Positions 1 through 58,424 of a DNA stretch of 58,870 bases are shown here, one piece after another (position 1 is the first letter of the stretch; each line of letters begins with the position of its first letter). Both the position numbers and the translations under genes were made by a program. The stretch comes from an uncultured Candidatus Bathyarchaeia archaeon (GTDB taxonomy: Archaea; Thermoproteota; Bathyarchaeia; Bathyarchaeales; Bathycorpusculaceae), in contig CAZJQR010000001.1 in assembly GCA_964548345.1 (NCBI GenBank), positions 1 to 58,870 of the forward strand, given 5' to 3'. Below the pieces are notes generated by a model. The model did no database searches, was not told where the DNA came from, and saw only the letters and a list, made by a program, of their open reading frames with translations.

Positions 1-1396
1 TCTTTTCCTCGATCATGCGCTTCTCGCCAGCTTTGAGTATGAAGCTGTGGATTTCGAGTTTGACTGGGCATGCTTGTTCGCAACGTCCGCAACCGATGCA
101 TTCCTCATACAGGTCAGTTAGCGGGACAAGGTTACCTTCAGCAGCTGCCTTCAGCGCAGATGGGATGTTTAGGTCTTGCGGACAGCTTCTCTGGCATAAG
201 TTGCATTGCCTGCAGGTCTTCGCAAGCGCCACGATTTCTTCAATTTTGGGCAAGATCGTCTTTTTCTTGCGTATGGGCGCTATTTGCTGCGCGACTTTGA
301 CCGAGACTTCACCGACTTTTTCAGGGTCAAGAATCAAAACGCCTGGGACTTTGCCGCTTACCAAATCTGCCACTATTTCGTCTGCAGGGTCGTTTGTGCG
401 GTTTTTGTAGCCTATGCAGTTCTTCTCTGACGCAGCTATAACTGGTGCGTTGACGCGTTCAGCCTCTAAGGAACAATCCGTTCTGACACATTGCTCGTCC
501 AAAACCACTACGTCGGCAAACCCGCCTCTTATGAAGCGGAGTTCCCAACTGATTGGACCGACGATTTTTGCTCGGTCAAAGTATCTTGTGTTGTCGATGG
601 CAGTGCAACATAATCCTACAACTTCCATCTTATCCTCGAGTTTGTTATCTTTCATGTAATCGATAATTCCAACCGAAGGCACGACGTTATGGCCGATGCA
701 CATGATGACTGGCTTTGACGTGTCAACTGTTCCGATGCCCATTTGAACGAGCGGGGCTTCAGGGTCAGCCTTTGGAAAGTCAAATGCGGAAATTTGAGCC
801 ATGTCCGCGACCTCCATGCCTACCTGGTCAACTCTCCCTGCGTGGAATGCCTTTGATTCAAAATCCAAGTTATTCGCTTCTTGACCTGTGTGTGCAGCAG
901 ATAGCAAATGTGTAACCTGTGTCTCGCAATATGTCAGAACTTCGTCTAAGTCTCCGAGGGTTTCAGGTCTTATTCCTGTAACAAGCCTAGTAACTGGAGC
1001 TTCAACCTTAACGTTTAAGCCGCCTACGTCGATAGGATACCTTCGACCATATTTTTCAATCAAATGATCAACAACGTGGCGAGCGTGTCCCGTATGGGTT
1101 GCTGCTCCTATGCTGCAAGCTATGAGCACTATACGGGATGACTGGGCACCTATGTCGAGCCCACAGGCTCCACGTTTTCCCGCGGTCAAATCGCACTTGC
1201 CATAAGTGCAAAGACAGCACAAGTCACAATCTGGCATGTAGAAAGGCTTGTACTTGTTAAGGAGCGTCATGTCCCAATCTCTTAACGTGGCAATGGACGG
1301 CATCGGTGTGGGTCCCATGGGTTCAGTCCAAGAGTCATTTACAACTTTGCCGATGGATAATTCAAGATTTTTAACAAGACCAGTGTTGGTCTTCAT
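1..1396 (-). CDS. cdhA: CODH/ACS (acetyl-CoA decarbonylase/synthase) alpha subunit CdhA, N-terminal ~465 aa; the gene runs off the left edge
   Basis: Absent from the ORF track because no stop codon lies in the window. Manual reverse translation from the ATG at 1396 gives MKTNTGLVKNLELSIGKVVNDSWTEPMGPTPMPSIATLRDWDMTLLNKYKPFYMPDCDLCCLCTYGKCDL, then GHARHVVDHL. A ferredoxin-like insert follows (CRQCNLCQRSCP ... CIGCGRCEQACP), typical of archaeal CdhA. The frame stays open to position 2. Confidence 0.8.
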   Translation of the reverse strand, partial: MKTNTGLVKNLELSIGKVVNDSWTEPMGPTPMPSIATLRDWDMTLLNKYKPFYMPDCDLCCLCTYGKCDLTAGKRGACGLDIGAQSSRIVLIACSIGAATHTGHARHVVDHLIEKYGRRYPIDVGGLNVKVEAPVTRLVTGIRPETLGDLDEVLTYCETQVTHLLSAAHTGQEANNLDFESKAFHAGRVDQVGMEVADMAQISAFDFPKADPEAPLVQMGIGTVDTSKPVIMCIGHNVVPSVGIIDYMKDNKLEDKMEVVGLCCTAIDNTRYFDRAKIVGPISWELRFIRGGFADVVVLDEQCVRTDCSLEAERVNAPVIAASEKNCIGYKNRTNDPADEIVADLVSGKVPGVLILDPEKVGEVSVKVAQQIAPIRKKKTILPKIEEIVALAKTCRQCNLCQRSCPQDLNIPSALKAAAEGNLVPLTDLYEECIGCGRCEQACPVKLEIHSFILKAGEKRMIEEK

Positions 1397-3999: not shown

Positions 4000-6690
4000 T
4001 CACTGCAGAAATAGAGACTCTATAACCGTCTCTTCATCCAACGTTTCCACCTTAAATCCTTTTTTCTTGCATAACTGAAGCATCTTGTAGTTGTAAGCAC
4101 TCACGTAACCGTAGATTTTGTCCACACGCATGTCTTTGCCGATCTCAACAAGCAGGTTCATGAGCTTGGACCCAAGCCCCAAGCCTTGCCATTTATCGCC
4201 CACTAAAACGGCGAACTCACCACTTTTCCCTCCAGGCTCAGCAATTAACCGAACAGCACCGATTATTGGCTTGTTGCCTTCTTGAAGTTCGGTTACAACA
4301 GCGATTTCACGGTCGTAATCCAGATTGCAGTACCGCGTCAAAGCCTCATGGGACATTTCTTTTATGATCTCGAAAAACCTGAACCGCATAGATTCCGCAG
4401 AGAGAGACTTCAAAAACTCGTTGAAACGTTCCTCGTCTTCAGGCTTTATTGGGCGGAGCGACACGTGAGTTTCGTTTTTCAGCCGCCTCACGGCAACGTA
4501 TTTCTGGGGGTAAGAAGCGATGAGACGGTTGTCGTGATGCTCGGCAACCTCGCGCATCATCCTGTCCCACTCTATTGCGATGCGAGCGTCAACCGCCACA
4601 ACACCATTCCCATGAGCAATCAAGGGGTTTATGTCAACCTCTTTTATTTCCGGGAAATCGGTGGCAAGCTGCGAAAACTTCACCAGAATTTCTTCAAGAA
4701 GCTTAACATTTAAGGGATACCCGATGGATGAAGCGTGTTTGAAAACGGCGGTGTCTTCTATTAACCGTTTTGCGAGTGTCTGATTTAGCGGAGGAAAACC
4801 TATGGACACGTCCTTGAACAATTCAGTGGCGGTTCCGCCCATCCCGAAAATTATTGTGGAGCCGAACTGCGCGTCCTTCTTAGAGCCTAAGATCATTTCG
4901 TATCCCTTTTCGTGTATCATAGGCTGAATGGATACGCCTTGGAACTCAGCAGTGCTGCTGAAACTCTTGACCCTTTTAGCTATCTCTCCAAAGAGAGTTC
5001 TGGTTTCTAATGAAGAACAGACGTTCAGCAAGACGCCTCCGATTTTAGATTTGTGCGTAATCTGCGGAGATAGAGCTTTCAGGACTACGGGGTAGCCCAG
5101 TTCGGAAGATAAGGCGCTGGCTTCTTCAGGGGTACGTGCCACAAGCGTCTTCACGGCTGGGATCTTGTACGCTTCCAAAAAGCGCATGGATTCAGGTAAA
5201 GTAAGGACTTGCCGTCCCTCGCAGAAAGCTCGTCTGAGAATCCCCTTTAGAGAAGTTAAGTTGGGTTTTTCCACTGGTAGCTCTTCAGGAGTCTGATACA
5301 GAAGCTCCAAGTTTCGAGAGTAATCGTACATGTGCATGAAGGTTGAAACAGCCTCTTCAGGAGTTGCAAATGACGGAACACCGTTTCCTTGAAGGATTCG
5401 GCGAGCTTTTCGGCAATGGTCATCTTCACCCATAAGAGTCGTGAGGACAGGTTTCTTGGTCTGTTTTGCCAAGTCCACTATGGTCTTTGCAAGGGCAACA
5501 GGTTTTGTTGCGCCTTGAGGCGTGTATATAATCAGGAAGCCGTGGCCGTTGGGGTCTTTCAGGCTTATCTCCAGCACCTTTCTGAACCTGTCTGGAGTAG
5601 CCTCCTCGTAGAGGTCGATGGGGTTTGCTATGCTGCAGTAAGGGGGCAAAATATTTTTCAAGGCTTGAACTGCCTCGGTGCTTAACTGCGAGAGCTTTCC
5701 CCCTCGCGCGATAAGGTTATCTGCAGCCATTATCGCTGGGCCTCCCGCGTTGGTGATTATCGTCAAGTTTGGACCAGTCGGATGCGGCTGCATAGCCAAA
5801 GCTTCTGCACAGTTGAAAAGATCACGGATAGCCTCAACACGAACTATTCCGGCACGTCGGAAAGCAGCGTCGTAGACGGCGTCTTCTCCGCCTAAAGAGC
5901 CGCTGTGGCAAAGGGTGGCTTGGCTGGTTTCCTTGAAACGTCCCGCTTTAATCAGCACGATGGGCTTGGTTCGGGCGGAACATCGGGCTGCACTCATGAA
6001 TTTTCGACCGTCTTTTATTGATTCAACATAAACTAGGATGCTTCTGGTCTGGGCGTCAATTCCGAAATAGTCAATTAAGTCTCCGAGGTCCACATCAAGC
6101 ACTGAACCTGTGGAGACCACGGCGCTGAAACCAACTTGGGCTTCCGACGCCCAGTCTAAGGCTGAAGCGCATAAAGCGGCGCTTTGGGAGATGAACGCGA
6201 TTTTTCCAAGGCTTGCCTGCTTATCGGCAAATGTGGCGTAGAGATTGATTTTGGGTCTAATCACGCCGAAACTGTTGGGTCCGATTATACGTATGCCGTA
6301 CTTTCTTTGATGCTCCAGAAGCTGCTTCTCAAGGTCCGCGCCGTCTTCGCTTATTTCTTTTAAGCCTGCTGAGATTATTATGGCTCCAGCAACTCCAGCT
6401 TTTCCACATTCTTCGACGACCTGCGGGACCACATGTGCTGGGGTCGCTATAACCGCGAGGTCTATCTTGCCAGGAATCTTGCTGATGCTGGGATAAGCAG
6501 TTAGCCCTTGCACTGTCTGCCTGAAAGGGTTTACAGGAAAAACTGTGCCTTTGTAGCCTGCGCTTATGAGGTTGCTGAAGATTTTGGCGCCTATGGAGTC
6601 TTTTCTTTCGCTTGCGCCTATGACGGCGATTCGCTTAGGATTGAAAATGCGGTTGAGGTTTTCGATTCCCAAGTTTAGGTGTTCCTTCAT
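4000..6690 (-). CDS. ADP-forming acyl-CoA synthetase-like protein fused to a C-terminal GNAT acetyltransferase (Pat-type protein acetyltransferase architecture)
   Basis: A CoA-binding start (FNPKRIAVIGAS), succinyl-CoA-synthetase-like and ATP-grasp regions, then a GNAT motif A (KWQGLGLGSKLMNLL) at the C-terminus. The ORF runs to 6864, but Met59 (MKEHLNLGIENLNRIFNPKRIAVIGAS, ATG at 6690) matches the usual N-terminus. Confidence 0.8.
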   Translation of the reverse strand: MKEHLNLGIENLNRIFNPKRIAVIGASERKDSIGAKIFSNLISAGYKGTVFPVNPFRQTVQGLTAYPSISKIPGKIDLAVIATPAHVVPQVVEECGKAGVAGAIIISAGLKEISEDGADLEKQLLEHQRKYGIRIIGPNSFGVIRPKINLYATFADKQASLGKIAFISQSAALCASALDWASEAQVGFSAVVSTGSVLDVDLGDLIDYFGIDAQTRSILVYVESIKDGRKFMSAARCSARTKPIVLIKAGRFKETSQATLCHSGSLGGEDAVYDAAFRRAGIVRVEAIRDLFNCAEALAMQPHPTGPNLTIITNAGGPAIMAADNLIARGGKLSQLSTEAVQALKNILPPYCSIANPIDLYEEATPDRFRKVLEISLKDPNGHGFLIIYTPQGATKPVALAKTIVDLAKQTKKPVLTTLMGEDDHCRKARRILQGNGVPSFATPEEAVSTFMHMYDYSRNLELLYQTPEELPVEKPNLTSLKGILRRAFCEGRQVLTLPESMRFLEAYKIPAVKTLVARTPEEASALSSELGYPVVLKALSPQITHKSKIGGVLLNVCSSLETRTLFGEIAKRVKSFSSTAEFQGVSIQPMIHEKGYEMILGSKKDAQFGSTIIFGMGGTATELFKDVSIGFPPLNQTLAKRLIEDTAVFKHASSIGYPLNVKLLEEILVKFSQLATDFPEIKEVDINPLIAHGNGVVAVDARIAIEWDRMMREVAEHHDNRLIASYPQKYVAVRRLKNETHVSLRPIKPEDEERFNEFLKSLSAESMRFRFFEIIKEMSHEALTRYCNLDYDREIAVVTELQEGNKPIIGAVRLIAEPGGKSGEFAVLVGDKWQGLGLGSKLMNLLVEIGKDMRVDKIYGYVSAYNYKMLQLCKKKGFKVETLDEETVIESLFLQ

Positions 6691-6875: not shown

Positions 6876-7649
6876 ATGAGGTTTGCAACTGTGGACGCTG
6901 TTGAAATAGTTGCTGTTGAGAATTTACCATTGATAACGAACGGGGACAACTTAGCTGAGCTTATATGCAACGCAGCTGAAAAACAGAACACGCCTATACA
7001 AGAAAAGGATGTGATAGTCATCACTCACGTTGCTGTTTCCAAAGCCGAGGGAAACGTGGTCAACCTTGATGATGTTTCGCCGTCGGAGCGGGCAACGGAA
7101 ATAGCGCAGCAAACCGGCAAGGAACCCGCTTTAGTGGAGGCAGTTCTGCGGGAGACAAAAGAAATAGTGCGCCTAGGTCCCAACAGCATAATCACGGAAA
7201 CCAAGAACGGCATAGTTTGCGCAAACGCTGGAGTGGACAGGTCCAATATTGAAGGAGAAAGAAACGTGGTGTTGCTTCCTAAAGACGCCGATGCGTCCGC
7301 GCAGAAGATCAGGCGAGAAATAAAGAGGCTAACGGGCTGCGATGTTGCCGTGATTGTTTCGGATACTCATGGGCGCCCATTTCGGATGGGGGAGATAAAC
7401 GTGGCGATAGGCGTAGCGGGAATCAAGCCAATAAGGGATAGGCGCGGAGAAAAGGACCTGTTCGGATACGTGCTTAGAATAAAGCAGACCTCTGTTGCTG
7501 ATGAATTGGCATCCGCTGCAGAGCTTGTGATAGGTCAGGCGAATGAGGGGATACCCGTTGCCATCATAAGAGGGTACAATTATCAGGCGATGGAAAACGC
7601 GTCGGCTGCTGAACTCACGAGACCGAAAGAGAAGGATTTGTTCAGATGA
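6876..7649 (+). CDS. cofE: Coenzyme F420-0:L-glutamate ligase
   Basis: 257 aa. CofE hallmarks are present: DVIVITHVAVSKAEG, GIVCANAGVDRSN, VIVSDTHGRPFRMG, AAELVIGQANEGIPVAIIRGY. Confidence 0.85.
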   Translation: MRFATVDAVEIVAVENLPLITNGDNLAELICNAAEKQNTPIQEKDVIVITHVAVSKAEGNVVNLDDVSPSERATEIAQQTGKEPALVEAVLRETKEIVRLGPNSIITETKNGIVCANAGVDRSNIEGERNVVLLPKDADASAQKIRREIKRLTGCDVAVIVSDTHGRPFRMGEINVAIGVAGIKPIRDRRGEKDLFGYVLRIKQTSVADELASAAELVIGQANEGIPVAIIRGYNYQAMENASAAELTRPKEKDLFR

Positions 7650-11973: not shown

Positions 11974-12426
11974 TCACGTAGGTTGGGCTGTTGATGCCTG
12001 TTGCGGTCTTGTTTCGCATCCTCGATTGCTGAATTTGCCCAGATACCCAAACGGATAGGATAGTAAAAAGATTTCAGGTACTCCAATAATTATGGAAAAG
12101 GGTACGCCTGTGATTGTTTGTATCATTAAATTGATGGTGGAGAAGATAAGTAGAAGGAAGAAGCCGTTGAGCCAGAATCCTATCTGCCATCCTTCACAGG
12201 CGTACAAACGATGAAGAACGGCTATGTTTAGCGCGCCTAATATCATCGGTTGAATGCCGTACATGATAAACAGGAAAATGGCGAATCCTATCGGAGCCAT
12301 GAAAAGAAGAAAGGAATCCTGAAAAGCATCCAGAAGGAGTTGAATGACGACTAGAGTAATTACTATGGCTAAGCCGTGAATGAAAACGGGTTTAGAAAGT
12401 TTAAGTGTTCTGCGCAATCCATTCAC
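11974..12426 (-). CDS. Small integral membrane protein (about 4 TM helices), function unknown
   Basis: 150-aa hydrophobic ORF that overlaps the 3' end of the upstream surface-protein gene by 26 nt on the same strand. I recognise no motif. Confidence 0.45.
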   Translation of the reverse strand: MNGLRRTLKLSKPVFIHGLAIVITLVVIQLLLDAFQDSFLLFMAPIGFAIFLFIMYGIQPMILGALNIAVLHRLYACEGWQIGFWLNGFFLLLIFSTINLMIQTITGVPFSIIIGVPEIFLLSYPFGYLGKFSNRGCETRPQQASTAQPT

Positions 12427-14752
12427 CCACTTTTTGTTCTGCGAGTCTCCCGCGTATTCCGTAAACGTTATCGACGCTGTTCCAGTAAACTATCCAGCAG
12501 CCCTTGAGCCCCATGCTTCTGAAGAGGTTGAGCCCACGAATTATGTAGTTGGCCTGTGCCGTGTTGTCGCTTGTTGACATGCCAAACTCTGAAATTACAA
12601 CTTGTTTATTGGTTATTTTTTGAAGCAGCTGAACCATGCGCGGGGAAAGTGCTAGAAAAGACTCCATAAAAACGTCGAACCCTATAAAATCGAGTTTCTC
12701 GCTAAATTGGACGGGAAGGTTTGTTCGAACCAAGAAGGCGGGTCCAAAGTTAGTGTAGTATTGTGCCGAAAGCCGATACTGTTCAACTATTGAGTAGACA
12801 TAATCAAATTTAGAACCTGCTTCATCATCAGTGAACAAGGCTCCCAAGTCCCATGATGACGCAACGTCAGGTTCATTGAGAACTTGAATGTAAGTAAGGT
12901 CGCTACCCCACCTACCAAGATAATAGTTTATGTTATCGGCGCTGTCGTGATTGTTGATTATAAGGGCGACTCTGATGCCAAGCTGCCTGACAGCACTGAA
13001 GAACACGTCCGTGAGCGTGTTTGAATACGAGTTTGGGCTTGTTGAGTCACAGACTATGTTAACGCGAATTACACTGAAGCCCAATTCGTTTATGTGGGAT
13101 ACTTGATCGTAGATTTGTCCGGCGCTGTCTTGTTCGTAAACGTAGGTTACGCCTACTTCAAATGCCGAGTTGGCGCTTCCAGACGAAATCGAATAGTAAG
13201 CGTAGGGAAAGAAAATTTGAGTGAACACCAGAAGGATAGATATACCGATTATCGTCAGCGTCCATAGCAGCCTGTTTTTTCCCAATGCTGCAAGGCGCTG
13301 TTTCTGGAATAAACTCGTTAAGCCTTTTTTCCTGTAATCCGAAAGGCTTTGTCGCTTAACGTAAGCCAGAAAAACTACAATGACAACGGCTGCAAGGGTT
13401 ATGCCTATGGCAACTAATTCTGTTGGGAAACGAGCCGCTATGGTGAACTGAATTGTGCCCGAAGAACCAACCAGTCCCCCTGTGTCCTGAGCGGAGACGG
13501 TTAGGTTGTGTGTGCCAATTGTTAATCCAGACAAGGTTGTGTTTCCAGTTATGGTTACTTCAGGTTGACCGTCAAGGCTGTAAGCAATCCATGAAAGAGG
13601 CTTATTTACGATAACTACTAACGGAACGTCAGTGGTTTCGTATGTTTTGCTTTGTGGGCTTGAGACTGTTATCACGGGAGGCAGGGTGTCAGGTTCTGGT
13701 GAAACCTTTATCATAAATGCGGTGTTGCCGAAAACTGCGCCAGCAACGACGTAGCCGCCATCTCTTGTCTTTATCAGGGACGACGATTGATAACTTGAAC
13801 CCCAGCCGCCACCACTGTTTAATGTTAATGCCCAGAGTTCACTGCCAGAAGAGTCTGTCCTTATCAACGTCGGACTGTTCCCTAGTGCTAATGCATAGCC
13901 GCTGTCATCGGTTTGCACTACTGCGTTGAAGCTGTCATTTAAAATATGCTCGTAATGAATGCTTATTTGTTCGTGTCCTTGAGAATCTATCTTGAGCAGC
14001 CAAGGAACGAGACCACCGCTCGCTTGATAGTCTCCAGTCCCCGCAAGCACAAATCCTCCGTCGTTGGTTGTCGCCATCGAGTGAACGATGTGCGCGTCTA
14101 GTGGTCCTCCGGAAGAGTAGGTTTGGCTCCATTGAAGGTTACTGTTAGAATCGATCTTGGCTAACCAAAAATCGTGTTGCCAGTTACCTGACAACGCGCA
14201 ACCACGATCGTCGGTCTCCACAACGGCATAAACAGTGAATCCGCCAGTAAAAGTTTTGTTCCATAGTAGATTACCTTGGACGTCAAACTTGTACAACCAA
14301 GCAAAGTAGTTCCCATCAATTCCTATGCTATTGCCCACCACCACGTAATCTCCGGCGCGAGTAACGAGGCCTTCCCGAGCGCCAATTGATCCAATAGAGA
14401 AACTCGACTCAAAGTCTCCATCAGCATTCGTTTTCACCACATGATCAGCGTAGAATAGCGCGTAGCCTAAATCACTAGTTTGCACAACCGATACCACATC
14501 GCCTTGTGTTTTTTGCCATTGGATATTACCAGACGAGTTTGTCTTAACAAACGTGGCTGCGTCAGGCGACGAGGAAGCTCCAGCTATAGCGTAGCCTCCG
14601 TCCGAGGTCTGAATGACAGATAACGCCTGTAAGTTGTTGTAGGTTTGTCTCCATTCAACTGAAGGTGCTTCGGCAGCGGCTGACGAAAGAACAGAAAAAA
14701 TCAAAACTAACGCAATAAATGCTACCGCAATGACAATTCTTATCGACTGCAT
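12401..14752 (-). CDS. Large envelope protein: signal peptide, 7 beta-propeller-type repeats, Ig-like domain, 2 TM helices, clan-A (GH5-like) glycoside hydrolase domain
   Basis: Seven repeats of about 45 aa share a TSDGGYAIAG / TDDRGCALSG / TNDGGFVLAG / TRDGGYVVAG core. The C-terminal TIM-barrel signatures are IQVLNEPD (acid/base Glu) and VVISEFGMS (nucleophile Glu). The start is taken at Met41 (MQSIRIVIAVAFIALVLIF, ATG 14752), which gives a normal signal peptide. Confidence 0.7.
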   Translation of the reverse strand: MQSIRIVIAVAFIALVLIFSVLSSAAAEAPSVEWRQTYNNLQALSVIQTSDGGYAIAGASSSPDAATFVKTNSSGNIQWQKTQGDVVSVVQTSDLGYALFYADHVVKTNADGDFESSFSIGSIGAREGLVTRAGDYVVVGNSIGIDGNYFAWLYKFDVQGNLLWNKTFTGGFTVYAVVETDDRGCALSGNWQHDFWLAKIDSNSNLQWSQTYSSGGPLDAHIVHSMATTNDGGFVLAGTGDYQASGGLVPWLLKIDSQGHEQISIHYEHILNDSFNAVVQTDDSGYALALGNSPTLIRTDSSGSELWALTLNSGGGWGSSYQSSSLIKTRDGGYVVAGAVFGNTAFMIKVSPEPDTLPPVITVSSPQSKTYETTDVPLVVIVNKPLSWIAYSLDGQPEVTITGNTTLSGLTIGTHNLTVSAQDTGGLVGSSGTIQFTIAARFPTELVAIGITLAAVVIVVFLAYVKRQSLSDYRKKGLTSLFQKQRLAALGKNRLLWTLTIIGISILLVFTQIFFPYAYYSISSGSANSAFEVGVTYVYEQDSAGQIYDQVSHINELGFSVIRVNIVCDSTSPNSYSNTLTDVFFSAVRQLGIRVALIINNHDSADNINYYLGRWGSDLTYIQVLNEPDVASSWDLGALFTDDEAGSKFDYVYSIVEQYRLSAQYYTNFGPAFLVRTNLPVQFSEKLDFIGFDVFMESFLALSPRMVQLLQKITNKQVVISEFGMSTSDNTAQANYIIRGLNLFRSMGLKGCWIVYWNSVDNVYGIRGRLAEQKVGEWIAQNT

Positions 14753-14994
14753 CGATGAAGAATGCGCAAGGCAGCAGCGTTTCAAAGACTCGCGAGCTCC
14801 ATTTAATAACACTATTGAGATTTGTTCCGCACTTATAATTTTTGGAAAGACCAACAACGAGCAACAAGACAAAAGAAAAACTACGAAATTTGCTCACTTC
14901 GAAAGACAAGAGGTCAACTTTTCTACAGTTAAACCCTGAAAACCGTCCCTAAAAATTTGAAAACGAAACAGACGTAAACAAAGTTCAGCACCTC

Positions 14995-15146
14995 AAAACA
15001 TCCGCCTTAACGTTCTTCAGAGCTATAAACAGTTTCTATATAAGGAGGGGCTATAGTCTGTTCCGAGCAGCTAGCCCAACGCCAGTCCAAACATCAGTTA
15101 CAGCTATTTGTAGTATAAATGAGGGGGCTATAGAAAAAAATCGCAA
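14995..15146 (+). repeat. Dispersed intergenic repeat, copy A (two G5-CTATAG boxes)
   Basis: The sequence cagtttctatataaggaggggctatagtctgttccgagca...gtagtataaatgagggggctatagaaaaaaatcgca aligns along its length with copies at 35420-35563 and 40971-41120 (rc). Confidence 0.8.
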
Positions 15147-16868: not shown

Positions 16869-18815
16869 ATGATTTCCGAAAACCCCTTTGACGACTTCCG
16901 AAAAGAATGCAAAACCGCATTAGCGCATGCCCTCAAGAAAACTCTGCCTGAAGTTAAAGTTGAAAACTTGGCATTCAATAAACCGCCGAACTCTGATTTT
17001 GGGCAGCTTGCCTCCTCATTGTGCTTTGAGCTGGCGAAAAAAATCCATCAGAAACCCGGTGACTTGGCTGCACAACTCGTCAAAGCCATTGGCAAACAAC
17101 GTTTCTTGCTGCTTGAGAAGGTTGCGGCTGTAGGCGGCTACGTGAATTTTCACGTTAACTTCCCCAAGTTTTCCGCGTTAACCCTCGAATCAATCAGGCA
17201 ACTGGATTCAGATTACGGTTTTGTCAAAACGGAAAAATCCGTGAAAATAATTGTTGAGCACACCAGCGTTAACCCACTTCATCCCATTCATATCGGGCAA
17301 GCCAGAAACCCGATGATTGGCGACGCTTTAGCTCGCATACTCAAGAGCAGAGGGCACACGGTGTCTAGTCATTACTATATTGACGATGTGGGACGCCAAT
17401 CCTCTGTTGTGGCATATGGTTACGCCAAGCTGGGTAAGCCCAAACCTGACGAGAAGGTGGACCATTTTGTGGGTAAGATATACACCACAACGAGTTGTTT
17501 GGTGGAGCTTAACCGTTTGACAAGAGAGCTTGAGCGTGCCAAGGCGGTTTCGTCTTCTGAGGAAGTAGCGAAGCTTACTAAGCAGGTTGACGAGTGGATG
17601 TCGATTGCTGCTGAGCTTGAAGGGAAGTTTCCTGTGCTTTTCGAGAAGCTTCTGGCAAAGATAGGGGAGGAAGAGAATCCTGAGGAGGAGATTAACAGGC
17701 TTAACCGTGCTTATGAGGATGGAGACGCTGAAGCTAAGCTGCTAATCAGAGAGGTGAGTGAGCTTTGTCTTAACGGTTTCAGGGAAACGCAGGAGCGTGT
17801 GGAGATTTGCTATGATTCGTGGGATTGGGAAAGTGATTTCGTGTGGAGCAGTCAGGTTTCAGAGGTTCTTCAAAAACTGAAAACTTCGCCGTTCGTTTAC
17901 AGCGAAGGTGGGGTGTTGGAGTTTGACGCTGAAAAGGTAGTGCGTGTTTTGGGGCTTAAGGCCAAGTTGGGTTTGAGGGAGGATTATGAGGTTCCGCCGT
18001 TGACGCTTGTGCGTGCGGATGGCACGACACTTTACACCACGCGTGATGTTGCTTACACTCTTTGGAAGTTTAGCCGAGCGGAAAGGGTGATAAACGTTAT
18101 TGGTATGGAGCAGTCGTTGGCGCAGTTGCAGCTGAAGATAGCATTGTACGCTTTGGGCTACGGGAGTTACGCTGACAATTTTGTTCACTTCGCTTACAAT
18201 CTGGTGACGCTTCCTGGGCATAAAATGTCCAGTCGGCGAGGAAGGTATATCACTTTCGACGAGGTTTTGAACGAAGCGGTTGAACGGGCTTACGAAGAGG
18301 TTTCGAAGCGTTCTCCCAAGTTGTCAGAAGAGGAAAAACGTGGCATTGCCGACTTTGTGGGGTTGGGTGCCGTGCGTTACGCTCTTGTTGATGTTGATAC
18401 TTCTAAACCGGTTATTTTCACGTGGGATAGAGTGCTGAATTTTGAAACCAACAGTGCTCCTTACGTGCAGTACACTCATGCTAGGGCTTGCAGTATCTTG
18501 CGCAAGGCGGCAAGGGAGCCTGAAAACGCGGATTTCGCGCTCTTGAAGGATAAATTGGAACGGGAGTTGGTTCTGTTTTTAGCGAGTTTTCCAGATGCCT
18601 TTGTCGAAGCCACAGAGTATCTTAAACCCAACATGATATCGGGCTTCACAAACGCGCTTGCTGACAGGTTTAACACGTTTTACAACGCGTTGCCCGTTAT
18701 CAAAGCCGAATCGAAGGAGCTTAGTGATGCTCGAATAGCGTTAACCGATGCAATTCGCATCGTGCTGCGTAATGCTCTAACGTTGATTGGTGTTGTGGCA
18801 CCTGAAAAAATGTAA
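16869..18815 (+). CDS. argS: Arginine--tRNA ligase
   Basis: 648 aa with a class I HIGH-type motif (NPLHPIHIGQARN), a KMSKS-type motif (HKMSSRRG) and a DALR-like C-terminal anticodon-binding region. Confidence 0.95.
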   Translation: MISENPFDDFRKECKTALAHALKKTLPEVKVENLAFNKPPNSDFGQLASSLCFELAKKIHQKPGDLAAQLVKAIGKQRFLLLEKVAAVGGYVNFHVNFPKFSALTLESIRQLDSDYGFVKTEKSVKIIVEHTSVNPLHPIHIGQARNPMIGDALARILKSRGHTVSSHYYIDDVGRQSSVVAYGYAKLGKPKPDEKVDHFVGKIYTTTSCLVELNRLTRELERAKAVSSSEEVAKLTKQVDEWMSIAAELEGKFPVLFEKLLAKIGEEENPEEEINRLNRAYEDGDAEAKLLIREVSELCLNGFRETQERVEICYDSWDWESDFVWSSQVSEVLQKLKTSPFVYSEGGVLEFDAEKVVRVLGLKAKLGLREDYEVPPLTLVRADGTTLYTTRDVAYTLWKFSRAERVINVIGMEQSLAQLQLKIALYALGYGSYADNFVHFAYNLVTLPGHKMSSRRGRYITFDEVLNEAVERAYEEVSKRSPKLSEEEKRGIADFVGLGAVRYALVDVDTSKPVIFTWDRVLNFETNSAPYVQYTHARACSILRKAAREPENADFALLKDKLERELVLFLASFPDAFVEATEYLKPNMISGFTNALADRFNTFYNALPVIKAESKELSDARIALTDAIRIVLRNALTLIGVVAPEKM

Positions 18816-18830
18816 CTGCTGTTACTGCGG

Positions 18831-18957
18831 TGCGATTTTTTGCTATAGCCCCCTTATTTAAAGTGTAAATAGGCTGAAACGCGGCGTCGAATAGACCCCC
18901 TCTATAGTTTTCTGCGATTGGCTATTAGACTCTAAATATAAGGAGACAGTTTAGGCG
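18831..18957 (-). repeat. Dispersed intergenic repeat, copy B (shortened, reverse orientation)
   Basis: tgcgattttttgctatagcccccttatttaaagtgtaaatagg ... atagaccccctctatagttttctgc ... ctaaatataaggagacagtttagg. The reverse complement matches box 2 and the terminal A-run of copy A, and the distal part of copy D. Confidence 0.7.
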
Positions 18958-22698: not shown

Positions 22699-22768
22699 GT
22701 TTCTCCCCTCTATCCTTTTCGATATTACAGTATAGTGAAACAGGATATAAGGAGCACAGTTTAAAGGT
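22699..22768 (-). repeat. Possible partial copy (E) of the dispersed repeat
   Basis: gtttctcccctctatccttttcgatattacagtatagtgaaacaggatataaggagcacagtttaaagg resembles copy B's atagaccccctctatagttttctgcgattggctattagactctaaatataaggagacagtttaggcg. It overlaps the gins23 ribosome-binding region, so part of the match may be coincidental. Confidence 0.4.
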
Positions 22769-35419: not shown

Positions 35420-35563
35420 AAAACATAGACACCTGCGCTTCCCCTCAGAAATTTATGCAGTTTCTATATATAAGGGGGCTATAGACTGCTCCGAGCACTA
35501 GAGCGCAATAGTCTAATCAACAATTCAAACTGTTTATAGAGGGTGTATAATTTTTTTCACGCG
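35420..35563 (+). repeat. Dispersed intergenic repeat, copy C
   Basis: ctgcgcttcccctcagaaatttatgcagtttctatatataagggggctatagactgctccgagcactag...ctgtttatagagggtgtataatttttttcacgc is collinear with copy A. The second box is degenerate. Confidence 0.75.
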
Positions 35564-39687: not shown

Positions 39688-40776
39688 TTAACAGATAATT
39701 TTGGATTTTAATATGTTTTCAGAGATTTCCTTGCCTGGACAGACAGTGGTTTCCTTTGCGAGGGTGATGTTGTCTCTGACTTTTGCTTGGTCGCCGATTA
39801 TGCAGTCTTTGCTGATTCTGACTTTTTTTCCGATTGATGCGTTTTCGCCTATTATGGCTCCGTTTATGGATGTAGAATCGTCTATTTTTGCTTCCGATAA
39901 TATTACGGATTGGCTGATGCGTACGTTTTTTCCGACGGCGACGTTTTTTCCCAGAATCGTGTATGGACCGATGATTGATTTTGCGCCTATGTGAACGCCT
40001 TTGCCCATGGCTACAGGATTTTTTAACTTGAACTTGTCTGCGTTTTTGGGTTTTTGTGTTTTGGCGAGTGCGTCGAGAAGGTTTTTGTTTGCTTGCAGGT
40101 ACTCTTTTGGTTTGCCTATATCCATCCATAAACCTTGGAAGACATGCCCGTAAAGTTGTCCTTCTTGGGCTAGTTTTGGGAAGACTTCTCGTTCCATTGA
40201 AACCTTTTTTCCTTTTGGGAGGTACTGGAAGATTTTGGGGCTTAGAACGTATATTCCAGCGTTTATGAGGTTGGTTGGCGCTGTGCCTTTGGCTGGTTTC
40301 TCTATGAACCTTTTCACGCGGCAATTTTTGTTTAATTCCGCTACTCCGTATCTGCTTGGGTCTTCAACTTCGTGAAGCGCAATCGTGACCAAGTTGCCTC
40401 TTTCCTTGTGTTTCTTCAGAATTTCTGTGTAACTCAAATCGGCGAATATGTCTCCATTCAAAACCATGAAAGTCTCCGAGTTTCCAATGAACTTTTCAGC
40501 GTTTTTTATTGGTCCTCCAGTTCCCAGAGGCGTTTTTGGTGGGTCGATGGAGTATTTTATGCGTAATCCGTGTTTTGGGATTCGTTTCTGTTTTACGTAG
40601 AACGCTGTTAGCCCGTTAACCGCTAGTATTGCTTCTTCAATGTTGTTTTTGGCGATTCTTTCGAAAATCCATTCCAGAAGTGGCTTGTTGACTATGGGGA
40701 AAAGGGTTTTGGGTCTGGTGCAGCTTAATGGTCTTAGTCTGGTGGCGAATCCGCCTGCGAGAATTACAGCTTTCAG
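39688..40776 (-). CDS. glmU: Bifunctional sugar-1-phosphate nucleotidylyltransferase/acetyltransferase (archaeal GlmU-like)
   Basis: (M)KAVILAGGFATRLRPLSCTRPKTLFPIVNKP, then a left-handed beta-helix hexapeptide C-terminus. The codon at the Met position is CTG (40776), preceded directly by an in-frame TAA. The ORF track only reports from Met104 (40467). Confidence 0.85.
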   Translation of the reverse strand: MKAVILAGGFATRLRPLSCTRPKTLFPIVNKPLLEWIFERIAKNNIEEAILAVNGLTAFYVKQKRIPKHGLRIKYSIDPPKTPLGTGGPIKNAEKFIGNSETFMVLNGDIFADLSYTEILKKHKERGNLVTIALHEVEDPSRYGVAELNKNCRVKRFIEKPAKGTAPTNLINAGIYVLSPKIFQYLPKGKKVSMEREVFPKLAQEGQLYGHVFQGLWMDIGKPKEYLQANKNLLDALAKTQKPKNADKFKLKNPVAMGKGVHIGAKSIIGPYTILGKNVAVGKNVRISQSVILSEAKIDDSTSINGAIIGENASIGKKVRISKDCIIGDQAKVRDNITLAKETTVCPGKEISENILKSKIIC

Positions 40777-40970
40777 TTAGTGTCAACCTCTTTGCGTTTA
40801 AGAGGCTATATTATCTGCGCGTTTTAATATAAACAGTTATGGTGAAAGACGGCTTGCTGAGTTCTACAGATTGATTGCGGAAGCAATTTGGTTACAGCAA
40901 GTTGCCGCTTGTTATCGAATGCGCTTTTGCTGCTGTCTGAGTTGGGGTATTCTGGTGCGGGCTGAACTGA

Positions 40971-41195
40971 TGCGCAATTTTTTGTCTATACCCCCTTATT
41001 TAAACTATAAATAGATACATTTGAAGCGTTGACTAGCGCGACGGTTATGCTCGGAAAAGACTATAGCCCCCCTATAAATAGAAACTTTAAATGGTTCTGA
41101 AAGAAGCGTGGCAGATAAACCCCCTATAGGTTTCTGCATAGTATTTCTATTAGGATCCAAATATATTGAGTGAATAGCGGGTTTTAAAGAAAGTT
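40971..41195 (-). repeat. Dispersed intergenic repeat, copy D (longest copy, three G/C5 boxes)
   Basis: tgcgcaattttttgtctatacccccttatttaaac...ctcggaaaagactatagcccccctataaatagaaact...ataaaccccctataggtttctgc...ctattaggatccaaatatattgag. The reverse complement is collinear with copies A and C. The distal part matches copy B. Confidence 0.8.
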
Positions 41196-57172: not shown

Positions 57173-57697
57173 TTGCAAACTATGTTTAAGCCGTGCAGGA
57201 AGGGAGAAGCATTGACTGACGAAACAAGACCTGATTGGGACAGGTACTTCTTGGACCTCTGTGAAGCGGTGGCTAGACGTGCTACGTGTGACCGGGGAAA
57301 GTGCGGTTGTGTCATCGTTAAAGACAAGCGTATTATGACTACAGGTTACGTTGGAGCGCCTGCGGGTTTACCTCACTGCGATGAGGCAGGTCACGACATG
57401 CGTAAAGTAATTGATTATAACGGTAATATTAGTCAGCATTGTGTGCGTACGCTGCATGCGGAGCAGAACGCGATTATTCAAGCGGCTAGGTTTGGCATTC
57501 CTTTGGAGGGGGCAACGCTTTTCTGCAAGATGACACCGTGCAGAACCTGCGCGATGATGATAATAAACGCGGGGATTAAGCGTGTGGTTTGTGAGAAGCG
57601 GTATCATGCGGATGCGGACACCATAGAACTGTTTAAGCAGGCTGGCGTGGAGCTGACTATAATGAATGATGAAGTCGAAGAGTACGAGCAACAGTGA
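57173..57697 (+). CDS. dCMP (deoxycytidylate) deaminase
   Basis: WDRYFLDL, zinc ligands HAEQNAI and PCRTCAMMIINAGIKRV. Confidence 0.85.
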   Translation: MQTMFKPCRKGEALTDETRPDWDRYFLDLCEAVARRATCDRGKCGCVIVKDKRIMTTGYVGAPAGLPHCDEAGHDMRKVIDYNGNISQHCVRTLHAEQNAIIQAARFGIPLEGATLFCKMTPCRTCAMMIINAGIKRVVCEKRYHADADTIELFKQAGVELTIMNDEVEEYEQQ

Positions 57698-57719
57698 AAA
57701 GCAATTTGGTAACTTTTAG

Positions 57720-58424
57720 TTACGGCTTATTACCAGCTGTGCGCTTTGACGGATTTGTGAAATTTTTAGCGCGCGCGCTACCTGAAAATTCTTGCATACT
57801 TCGTATATTGGCTTCAGCGTTAGATCGGAATAATGTCCACGGATTAGGTTTCCTCTTTCGAAGACCTTTTTTAGGCAACACTGGCACATAAATCTTTGAA
57901 TCAGCTCTAGAAGCATCCTTTATTATTGATGCAAAAGTCACCTTGAAGAAATCTCGTATAGCATCATTATCAATTGTCTGAATACATTCATTAATTTTAG
58001 CTAATTCAATAATTGTCCTTTTCGTGAACCAAAAGCCCAAGTTTTCAAATGAAGGCAAAGCACAGTCTTTATCTTTTTCCACCTTACAGCTTTCTTTCAA
58101 AAAATTATACGTTTTTTCCAGTTCAGCTATTGATAGCGTAGTGGTTTTCACTTTGGCAACAAGAGCTGTAACTGGGTTAATCTCTATACCGACAGAGTTC
58201 CAACCATTATGAAGAGCCTCAACCATCACAGTACCTGTTCCACAAAAAGGGTCTAAAACTTTTGAATCAGAACTTTTTCTTCTTATTTGACTTAGAAAAT
58301 AATATGGGATATGGGGAATAAGTTTAGCTGGATAAGGATACAATCCATGAGTCGAATATCTAGTTCCACCGACTTCAGGACACATTTCCCTGAAGCTTAC
58401 TAGATTCTTATTTTCTAACATCAA
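57720..58424 (-). CDS. DNA (N6-adenine/N4-cytosine) methyltransferase, apparently 3'-truncated (no motif IV)
   Basis: HGLYPYPAKLIP...VLDPFCGTGTVMVEALHNGWNSVGIEINP covers motifs X/I/II. No (D/N/S)PPY motif follows before the stop. The gene is visibly more AT-rich than the rest of the window. Confidence 0.6.
   Translation of the reverse strand: MMLENKNLVSFREMCPEVGGTRYSTHGLYPYPAKLIPHIPYYFLSQIRRKSSDSKVLDPFCGTGTVMVEALHNGWNSVGIEINPVTALVAKVKTTTLSIAELEKTYNFLKESCKVEKDKDCALPSFENLGFWFTKRTIIELAKINECIQTIDNDAIRDFFKVTFASIIKDASRADSKIYVPVLPKKGLRKRKPNPWTLFRSNAEANIRSMQEFSGSARAKNFTNPSKRTAGNKP

Follow-up and report, generated by a model that had tools for sequence, protein, structure and literature searches.

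The window analysed here is a stretch of 58,870 nucleotides (positions 1 to 58,870 of contig CAZJQR010000001.1, assembly GCA_964548345.1) from an uncultured Candidatus Bathyarchaeia archaeon. Its genes include those for GINS, Trm112, TRM5/TYW2 and an exosortase/archaeosortase-family protein, its GC content is ~47%, and it is syntenic with contigs of Candidatus Bathyarchaeia metagenome-assembled genomes (MAGs) at 77-84% nucleotide identity. Between the genes lies a dispersed repeat, which an earlier note had described as an unreported family of elements, each built from paired boxes of an A/T stretch, five G residues (G5) and CTATAG. The sequences quoted in that note were found where it had placed them, and we analysed the family both in the window and in other genomes.

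The presence of a dispersed intergenic repeat in the window was confirmed. At no more than one mismatch, GGGGGCTATAG matches the window five times (15046+, 15123+, 18843-, 35474+ and 41061-) compared to 0.40 matches expected, and none of 100 shuffles reached five. Repeat comparison within the window paired the stretches 15016-15069, 35445-35497 and 41048-41101(-) with each other at 79-81% identity over 53-54 nt, and likewise 15104-15145, 18831-18872(-) and 40966-41014(-) at 76-86%. A hidden Markov model (HMM) of the repeated module, termed M1, was built from 114 copies in other genomes and then run on the window, where it detected three full copies at E = 1e-15 to 1e-11 and also matched the second boxes of the copies labelled B, A and D. 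Together, the reported loci hold three full copies and three to five variant modules.

Anatomy of the module and its variants

The 114 copies, which were fetched with a pattern fixing 20 core positions, were aligned on their core and gave the consensus C-T(T/A)TA(T/A)A(T/A)AA-GGGGG-CTATAG-(T/A)CT(G/T)(C/T)TCCGAGCA-(N)Y-A-G-A-G-C. Conservation is restricted to about -11 to +30 from the first G and lies at background level on either side; the recurring unit is therefore one module of ~45 nt, M1, with the form C-TTTATATAA-GGGGG-CTATAG-N13, in which N13 ends in GCA and is followed by YAGAG. The TATA box is A/T-rich and 8 bp long; positions -10 to -2 read T, T/A, T, A, T/A, A, T/A, A, A, with the commonest base at 54-88%. 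The unit is single rather than paired as first described. Tandem modules are a minority, with 10 pairs among the 114 copies (~10%) spaced 54-79 nt apart, and ~90% of copies stand alone. The DNA between tandem modules is semi-conserved across loci (GCTAGCC...GTCAAC...GTTGAC). Conservation of ~35 nt upstream of the first box, which had been taken as general, is confined to one subfamily, where it forms the linker from M0, described below, to M1.

Two relatives of M1 were distinguished. M2 variants retain the TATA box, G4-6 and (C)TATAG and end in (G/C)GCA or ACGCG, after which comes YAGAG, while the 8-10 nt in the spacer are swapped for A-runs, T-runs or mixed low-complexity sequence of equal length. 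Across 24 variant modules, the spacing from CTATAG to (G/C)GCA and YAGAG stays constant at 13 ± 2 nt. M0 has the form ATATTTGGAnCCTAATAG-N9-GCAGAAAC-CTATAG-G5 and is located upstream of M1 in copy D, upstream of M2 in copy B (in both as a third module) and upstream of M1 in a subset of other loci. As had been stated, the element has no open reading frame (ORF) and no terminal inverted repeats, and it does not form a CRISPR array. A small ORF across the module (ATG CAG CC...TAG) was rejected, since its frame is not maintained between copies.

Two further features accompany M0 (loci from other genomes are designated L001 and so on). The M0 core ATATTTGGATCCTAATAG, at 41141-41170 in the window, is nearly palindromic, and a perfect palindrome, CTATTAGGATCCTAATAG, is present in L041, L073 and L087; the core may act as a bidirectional TATA box or as an operator, and its distance to the divergent archaeosortase gene in the window is ~40 nt. 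Just upstream of M0, the 16-bp palindrome GTCAAGAnnTCTTGAC, which is often present twice (L005 ~6390-6470, L041 ~2400-2450, L069 ~1940-2020), resembles a dimeric transcription-factor site.

In the window, the previously listed copies A, C, D and B stand (Table 1), whereas the fifth, at 22699-22768, dropped out. The latter has in common with the M0 of copy B only AAACTGT(G)CTCCTTATAT and ATAGAGGGG, which belong to the TATA/leader part, and is positioned directly upstream of the GINS start codon, the expected site of the GINS promoter and leader. The second module of copy A lies 77 nt after its M1 and ~90 nt before the ATG of a ferredoxin gene (15235). The degenerate second module of copy C is similar to second modules found in L070, L082 and L083, which have the form CTATTTATAGAGGGGGTATAG...CACGCG. 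Copy D matches composites in L069 and L066 at 84% identity over 118-130 nt. The M2 variant of copy B faces the 3' end of argS (stop at 18815), between the convergent genes for ArgS and a UDP-GlcNAc 2-epimerase.

Table 1. Modules of the repeat family and related features in the window.
Feature	Sequence	Position	Strand	Evidence or remark
Copy A, M1	TTTCTATATAAGGA-GGGG-CTATAG-TCTGTTCCGAGCA-GCTAG	15033..15074	+	HMM E=1.2e-11, repeat comparison
Copy A, second module (M2 variant)	TATAAATGA-GGGGG-CTATAG-AAAAAAATCGCA	15104..15145	+	HMM E=0.003
Copy B, M2 variant	TTTAAATAA-GGGGG-CTATAG-CAAAAAATCGCA	18825..18872	-	HMM E=1.5e-5
Copy B, M0-like	CCTTATATTTAGAGTCTAATAG...GCAGAAAA-CTATAGA-GGGGG-TCTAT	18881..18943	-	Sequence comparison
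Weak partial match of the earlier note, not a family member		22703..22762	-	No HMM match
Copy C, M1 (best match of the family)	TTTCTATATATAA-GGGGG-CTATAG-ACTGCTCCGAGCA-CTAGAG	35461..35503	+	HMM E=1.3e-15
Copy C, degenerate second module	CTGTTTATAGAGGGTGTATAATTTTTTTCACGCG	35530..35563	+	No HMM match
T-module	hairpin + TAACCAAATTGCTTCCGCAA	40867..40906	-	~100 nt after the last module of copy D
Copy D, M2 variant	TTTAAATAA-GGGGG-TATAG-ACAAAAAATTGCGCA	40967..41014	-	HMM E=0.16
Copy D, M1		41044..41084	-	HMM E=9e-13, repeat comparison
Copy D, M0	ATATTTGGATCCTAATAG-N-GCAGAAAC-CTATAG-GGGGG-T...	41106..41166	-	Sequence comparison

A second dispersed motif, termed the T-module, consists of a short GTAAC-N4-5-GTTAC hairpin followed by CAAWTTGCTTCYGCAAAC. 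Similar sequences are present at 57694-57726(-) and 18804-18825(-) in the window and in L022, L019, L094, L103 and others. On the same strand and 25-220 nt downstream, a T-module follows 12 of the 114 M1 copies; the figure for each of three control regions is 1-3. The motif may serve to end transcripts, as a 3' end or terminator module, or else as another promoter.

Two window genes deserve mention. The gene for a GlmU-like nucleotidyltransferase (39688-40770, minus strand) has a frame opened by CTG directly after an in-frame TAA; the Pfam match of the protein starts at residue 1 of this frame, and the L101 ortholog has GTG at that place. The CTG could be a start codon, a sequencing error or the sign of a pseudogene. 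An 823-aa ORF at 12401-14872(-) has no Pfam match, and its relatives are the commonest neighbours of M1 (6 of 198 neighbour proteins), located upstream of the module in either orientation.

Distribution, gene context and retention

The further copies that the earlier note had proposed to look for exist outside the window. An exact scan with GGGGCTATAGNCTNNTCCGAGCA, covering one genome per species for 185,579 species, found at least 109 stretches; among the matches listed, all come from Candidatus Bathyarchaeia/Bathyarchaeota MAGs, representing at least 20 assemblies. The MAG CAWDXS carries at least 19 copies in 2.06 Mb and CAYGVV at least about 33 loci, and a genome has dozens, and probably hundreds, of copies. 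No copies were found in the 2.9 million viral contigs of IMG/VR, and a virus origin was rejected. Rfam 15 searched at gathering score with the window and 18 loci returned only tRNAs, a permissive search (E up to 10) with copy D gave only a chance snoRNA match (E=6.1), and literature searches found no description of the family, which appears to be undescribed, as had been claimed. Many contigs end at a copy or within a few tens of bases of one, and the repeat is a likely contig breakpoint in Bathyarchaeia assemblies.

Gene context was counted using a codon-usage-scored ORF caller, which is crude and was checked on the window. Only 3 of the 114 copies lie inside ORFs. The next downstream ORF is co-oriented with the module in 58 of 100 cases and opposed in 42, and copy B lies between convergent genes, so that pointing toward a start codon is not the general rule it had seemed. 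Both neighbours could be called for 81 copies: 28 lie between co-directional genes and share their orientation, 14 lie antisense between co-directional genes, 18 are in divergent regions and 21 in convergent ones; convergent regions hold 26% of the copies compared to 18% of the intergenic length. About half of the opposed copies are within 50 nt of the stop codon that they face. At 20 sampled loci, the co-oriented downstream genes are housekeeping genes, encoding AlaRS, CysRS, TiaS, a Hel308-type helicase, L1, proteasome, AOR and Ftr, with GuaA and S30e as other examples; the association with envelope or glycan genes suggested by the window is no theme among them.

The intergenic DNA adjoining the module has more C than G and more A than T on the module strand, whatever the orientation of the neighbouring genes. 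C exceeds G downstream of the module in 38 of 53 cases when the gene is co-oriented and in 21 of 24 when it is opposed; the corresponding upstream counts are 38 of 43 and 27 of 37. The C and G fractions of gene-upstream DNA at large are 0.195 and 0.214, respectively. RNA that is poor in G and rich in A and C is unable to fold, which fits transcription in the direction of the module into unstructured leaders or non-coding RNA. In L101 (1311-1500), the ~190 nt from M1 to the guaA ATG are almost purely A and C, leaving M1 as the only possible TATA box before guaA. This leader, an extreme case of an unstructured one, contains neither a T-containing TATA box nor a Shine-Dalgarno sequence.

On contig CAWDXS010000003.1 (1.69 Mb), which has 16 listed M1 copies (L101, L075, L019 ... 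L020), the copies listed are on the plus strand in 10 of 12 cases before 1.05 Mb and on the minus strand in 4 of 4 after it. This could reflect chromosome-arm polarity; the split was chosen post hoc, and orientations in the window are mixed.

Copies of the family are retained at orthologous sites. Two tandem modules precede the ferredoxin gene both in the window (copy A) and in L038 (~2040-2180), and an M0-M1 composite adjoins the archaeosortase gene both in the window (copy D) and in L064, where it has the form M0-M0-M1. M1 is found upstream of the TiaS gene in two species and of the Hel308 gene in two species. The argS gene has a module facing its 3' end in three species, with a different gene on the other side; in L038 and L089 the modules after argS are of the M1 type and share the place and orientation of the M2 variant of copy B. 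Intergenic flanks of the measured orthologous pairs have an identity of 0.54-0.65, compared to 0.57-0.59 for unrelated pairs. The retention of copies between randomised flanks implies selection or continuing conversion; like the strand asymmetry, it speaks for a function and a polarity of the module.

The family also behaves as a propagating repeat, as indicated by two observations: five aligned copies in CAYGVV, in unrelated gene contexts, share ~170 nt of additional upstream homology with abrupt ends, and M0-M1 composites from different species, at loci that are not syntenic, have 84% identity. No terminal inverted repeats were found within the window copies or at the boundaries of the long subfamily, nor target-site duplications at the latter, and neither a transposase nor a recurrent neighbour was found in 776 kb examined, the largest cluster comprising 6 of 198 proteins. 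The idea that modules are the ends of insertion sequences (IS) or transposons was rejected, since the inward-facing pairs in L001 and L003 enclose housekeeping genes only and no neighbour family recurs. No empty site could be discerned among the syntenic loci L034, L014 and L101, all of which are rearranged at the relevant points. By analogy with promoter reuse (PMC3575422), such spread of copies is compatible with a promoter function.

Promoter-like geometry and rival explanations

The suggestion that the element is a portable promoter/operator module fits its anatomy as regards the TATA box, the fixed spacing to a C-A step and the confined conservation. Measured from the A of GCA, the 8-bp TATA box has its centre at 28.5 nt and its last adenine at 23-24 nt, and the conserved C-A, a pyrimidine-purine step, is the predicted start. 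In published archaeal promoters, the TATA box is centred ~27 nt upstream of the start, position -1 is a pyrimidine and +1 a purine, and an A/T-rich element lies near -10 (PMC5316973); the distance from the last TATA adenine to the start is 23 bp (PMC6640164). In M1 the region near -10 of the predicted start is TCTTTT or ACTGYT, and in the variants it is A6-7, T5-6 or mixed A/T of equal length; a spacing kept while the spacer is swapped is what a spacing-dependent initiation complex predicts. Conservation of the module spans about -31 to +8 of the predicted start, which matches a pre-initiation footprint in size. The tRNA promoters at the same loci have an ordinary A-rich upstream stretch and a TATA box without G5-CTATAG; M1 therefore represents a special class, not the general promoter of the lineage.

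We propose with moderate confidence that the module is a lineage-specific core-promoter cassette devoid of the TFB recognition element (BRE), which would start G-poor leaders of housekeeping genes as well as short or antisense RNAs at gene 3' ends. The anatomy, spacing, copy number, taxonomic range, strand asymmetry and orthologous retention were observed; from them we infer both initiation at the module and a protein that reads G5-CTATAG. The TATA-binding protein (TBP) would bind the TTTATATAA box, and GGGGG-CTATAG, at about -22 to -12, would replace the absent A-rich BRE and fix orientation, being read by transcription factor B (TFB) or a dedicated factor; alternatively or additionally, it may be the operator of a lineage-specific factor. 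After the following low-complexity stretch of fixed length, which is rich in T, A or pyrimidines, RNA polymerase would start at the C-A of GAGCA/CGCA, giving a transcript that begins with YAGAG and enters A/C-rich, G-poor and hence unstructured intergenic RNA. For just over half of the copies, this RNA would be the long 5' leader of a housekeeping gene, and for the remainder a non-coding or antisense RNA of short length that enters a convergent gene at its 3' end. Multiple start points would be offered by tandem modules. We base the proposal on the confined conservation, the TATA-to-C-A geometry, the spacing kept in variants, the guaA leader of L101, the strand asymmetry, the orthologous retention, the lack of excess folding and of Rfam matches, and the ordinary tRNA promoters.

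A bolder version of this proposal, which we regard as doubtful, is that the modules form a separate promoter class, the counterpart of an alternative-sigma regulon. Here the downstream G5-CTATAG would stand in for the BRE and be read by a dedicated TFB or TBP paralogue or by a global regulator, co-ordinating some hundred or more units, namely housekeeping genes with long unstructured A/C-rich leaders and programmed antisense RNAs at gene 3' ends, such as that of argS.

Several observations weigh against the promoter cassette. An A-rich BRE is found on neither side of the TATA box: in the 114 copies, positions -17 to -12 show no A enrichment, T amounts to 0.5-0.6 at -17/-16, and the other side is G5. 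The 42 of 100 copies that face the 3' end of the next ORF, and the 21 of 81 between convergent genes, would not be expected of a plain gene promoter. A further TATA-like 8-mer separates module and start codon in 43 of 55 co-oriented cases, and the module is therefore often not the proximal promoter; it is not simply the promoter of the next gene. The C>G asymmetry is also seen upstream of the module, where a start at the module cannot by itself account for it. Downstream of modules, T5 runs show no enrichment; terminators were rejected on this basis, and there are no obvious ones to define short RNAs. The invariance of the core is partly ascertainment, since the retrieval pattern fixes 20 of its positions, and initiation is read from geometry alone.

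Much of the distribution would also follow if the module were a selfish or neutral non-autonomous mobile repeat, of the type of a miniature inverted-repeat transposable element (MITE), a REP element, a short interspersed nuclear element (SINE) or a putative mobile promoter, which spread by duplication or gene conversion and whose promoter look is incidental or only occasionally exploited. We consider this unlikely. The copy numbers in CAWDXS and CAYGVV, the abruptly ending ~170-nt homology of the five CAYGVV copies, the composite shared by non-syntenic loci across species, a nearly random orientation relative to genes with all intergenic types occupied, and the contig ends at or near copies are as expected of such a repeat. 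However, subfamily boundaries show neither terminal inverted repeats nor target-site duplications, no transposase or recurrent neighbour accompanies the copies, inward-facing pairs hold housekeeping genes, the viral contigs are free of copies, and copies persist at orthologous sites despite randomised flanks; moreover, mobility alone leaves the conserved spacing and the strand-asymmetric flanks unexplained. As an origin of the copies, mobility is compatible with the promoter cassette. A different kind of repeat, the degenerate mini-CRISPR array, whose repeats would be the modules and whose spacers would be the 35-45 nt that separate tandem ones, is practically negligible: the tandem period of 54-79 nt, the ~40-nt repeats and the ~35-45-nt intervals are in the CRISPR range, but ~90% of copies have no partner, the two modules of a pair share only 60-76%, the intervals are semi-conserved between loci, the modules have a TATA box and promoter-like spacing, and a Pfam scan of 10 window and 20 locus proteins detected no cas domain.

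The copies at gene 3' ends could instead point to a boundary element acting at the DNA level, in which a very stable complex of TBP and a factor, or another G5-CTATAG protein, serves as a roadblock, insulator, terminator or chromosome-architecture site and not as a productive promoter. The excess of copies in convergent regions, the proximity of about half of the opposed copies to the stop codon, the conserved place and orientation after argS in three species, and an operon in L003 with one co-oriented copy upstream and another facing its 3' end all agree with such a role. M2 also gives T6-T7 on the opposite strand, with the run of copy B ~20 nt after the argS stop; yet on the argS strand a T-run is missing from the M1 copies that follow this gene in L038 and L089, and the A/T runs of variants are found on either strand, which fits a melting region over a strand-specific terminator. 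The possible arm polarity of the 1.69-Mb contig would suit chromosome architecture, but it was noticed post hoc from the copies listed, and orientations are mixed within 26 kb of the window. The fixed-spacing C-A and YAGAG have no role in a roadblock, and we know of no archaeal precedent for TBP as one. We therefore rate the boundary element as rather improbable. Still less probable, to a very low degree, is a structured small RNA, riboswitch-like leader or processing signal with TATA, G5 and CTATAG as RNA motifs. The self-complementary CTATAG, conserved hairpins downstream of the module at some loci and the inverted repeat TATTGGC-N8-10-GCCAATA after M0, kept in 16 copies (in one via G-T pairs), would speak for it, but the M0 stem shows almost no compensatory change and RNAalifold, a check proposed earlier, gave no consensus structure when run on 20 M0 regions. 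The folding of whole elements does not surpass that of shuffles (z-scores of +0.12 for A, +0.31 for D and -1.27 for C), contrary to the small-RNA gene that had been considered; apart from the chance snoRNA match no Rfam family fits the element, and even orthologous loci show no conservation in the sequence that follows the module.

Two RNA-related points stand apart. In L014 (~800-925, minus strand) and L019 (~7460-7560, plus strand), which come from different species, ~80 nt directly after M1 are conserved and contain an 8-bp hairpin, TTTCCGCG...CGCGGAAA; this is a candidate small RNA without an Rfam match. The resemblance of GGGGCTATAG to the 5' end of tRNA-Ala had suggested a tRNA or split tRNA, an idea that was rejected: ARAGORN found no tRNA within ~200 nt of any module, the tRNA promoters are ordinary, and the literature matches to the GGGGCTATAG 10-mer are unrelated to the element.

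Bathyarchaeia are among the most abundant uncultured archaea of sediments and soils, and in the searchable literature we found no study of their transcription signals. If correct, the core-promoter cassette would give a direct handle on promoter recognition in this lineage, through a near-invariant TATA-to-start stretch that is weakly conserved in model archaea. It would be a candidate strong promoter for genetic tools, mark the starts of transcription units in MAG annotation, and offer in G5-CTATAG a specific DNA-protein contact open to tests with recombinant factors. The copies facing gene 3' ends would become a test case for selected versus accidental antisense transcription in archaea.

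Comparison with known systems

The module matches none of the definitions of a MITE or IS, a REP/BIME, a CRISPR array or an Rfam family. Elements of the Correia/ERIC/REP type have terminal inverted repeats or strong palindromic hairpins, and REPINs have the RAYT transposase. In contrast, the module is polar, without inverted termini and without excess folding. It is like Correia/CREE, ERIC, REP/BIME and REPIN elements in being short, abundant and extragenic; as far as they are cited in PMC3575422, these elements occupy all intergenic contexts, including gene 3' ends as the module does, and can supply promoters. Putative mobile promoters (Matus-Garcia, Nijveen and van Passel, 2012; PMC3575422) were defined by an identity of about 80% or higher, across about 50 nt or longer, in DNA that precedes unrelated genes and where no mobile element can be recognised. 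The family falls within this definition (at least 80% over at least 50 nt, non-paralogous genes), with 79-81% over 53-54 nt within the window and 84% over 118-130 nt between copy D and L069/L066; the flanking genes are unrelated, only part of the copies being upstream of a gene. It likewise places similar non-coding sequences before unrelated genes, within and between genomes. That survey used windows anchored at translation starts, gave bacterial examples only and saw no transfer between Archaea and Bacteria (PMC3575422). Unlike its entries, which are mostly pairs, the module is present in dozens to probably hundreds of copies per genome in at least 20 species-level MAGs, and also in non-promoter positions.

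Haloarchaeal rRNA promoters are whole promoters arranged as tandem direct repeats. The tandem modules are similar in being whole units, although they are not upstream of rRNA. The eukaryotic BREd is a G/T-rich element immediately downstream of the TATA box, with the consensus RTDKKKK, that is contacted by a TFIIB/TFB-type factor. The module likewise has a G-rich element directly after its TATA box; unlike in BREd, RTDKKKK is only loosely matched by AAGGGGGCT and the TFB contact is putative.

Among the closest known systems is the archaeal core promoter as mapped by differential RNA sequencing (dRNA-seq) in Thermococcales (PMC5316973, PMC6640164). The module differs from it in having no A-rich BRE, in carrying an 11-nt G5-CTATAG that hardly varies, followed by a mostly invariant stretch as far as the predicted +1, in having many copies that are not upstream of a gene, and in occurring in genomes whose tRNA promoters are ordinary; in ordinary archaeal promoters, the TATA-to-start stretch is weakly conserved except for the A/T-rich proximal element near -10 (PMC5316973). 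The two are alike in their 8-bp A/T TATA box 23-24 nt from a pyrimidine-purine step, which in the module is the predicted start, in a low-complexity region around -10, and in conservation limited to the span of the pre-initiation complex.

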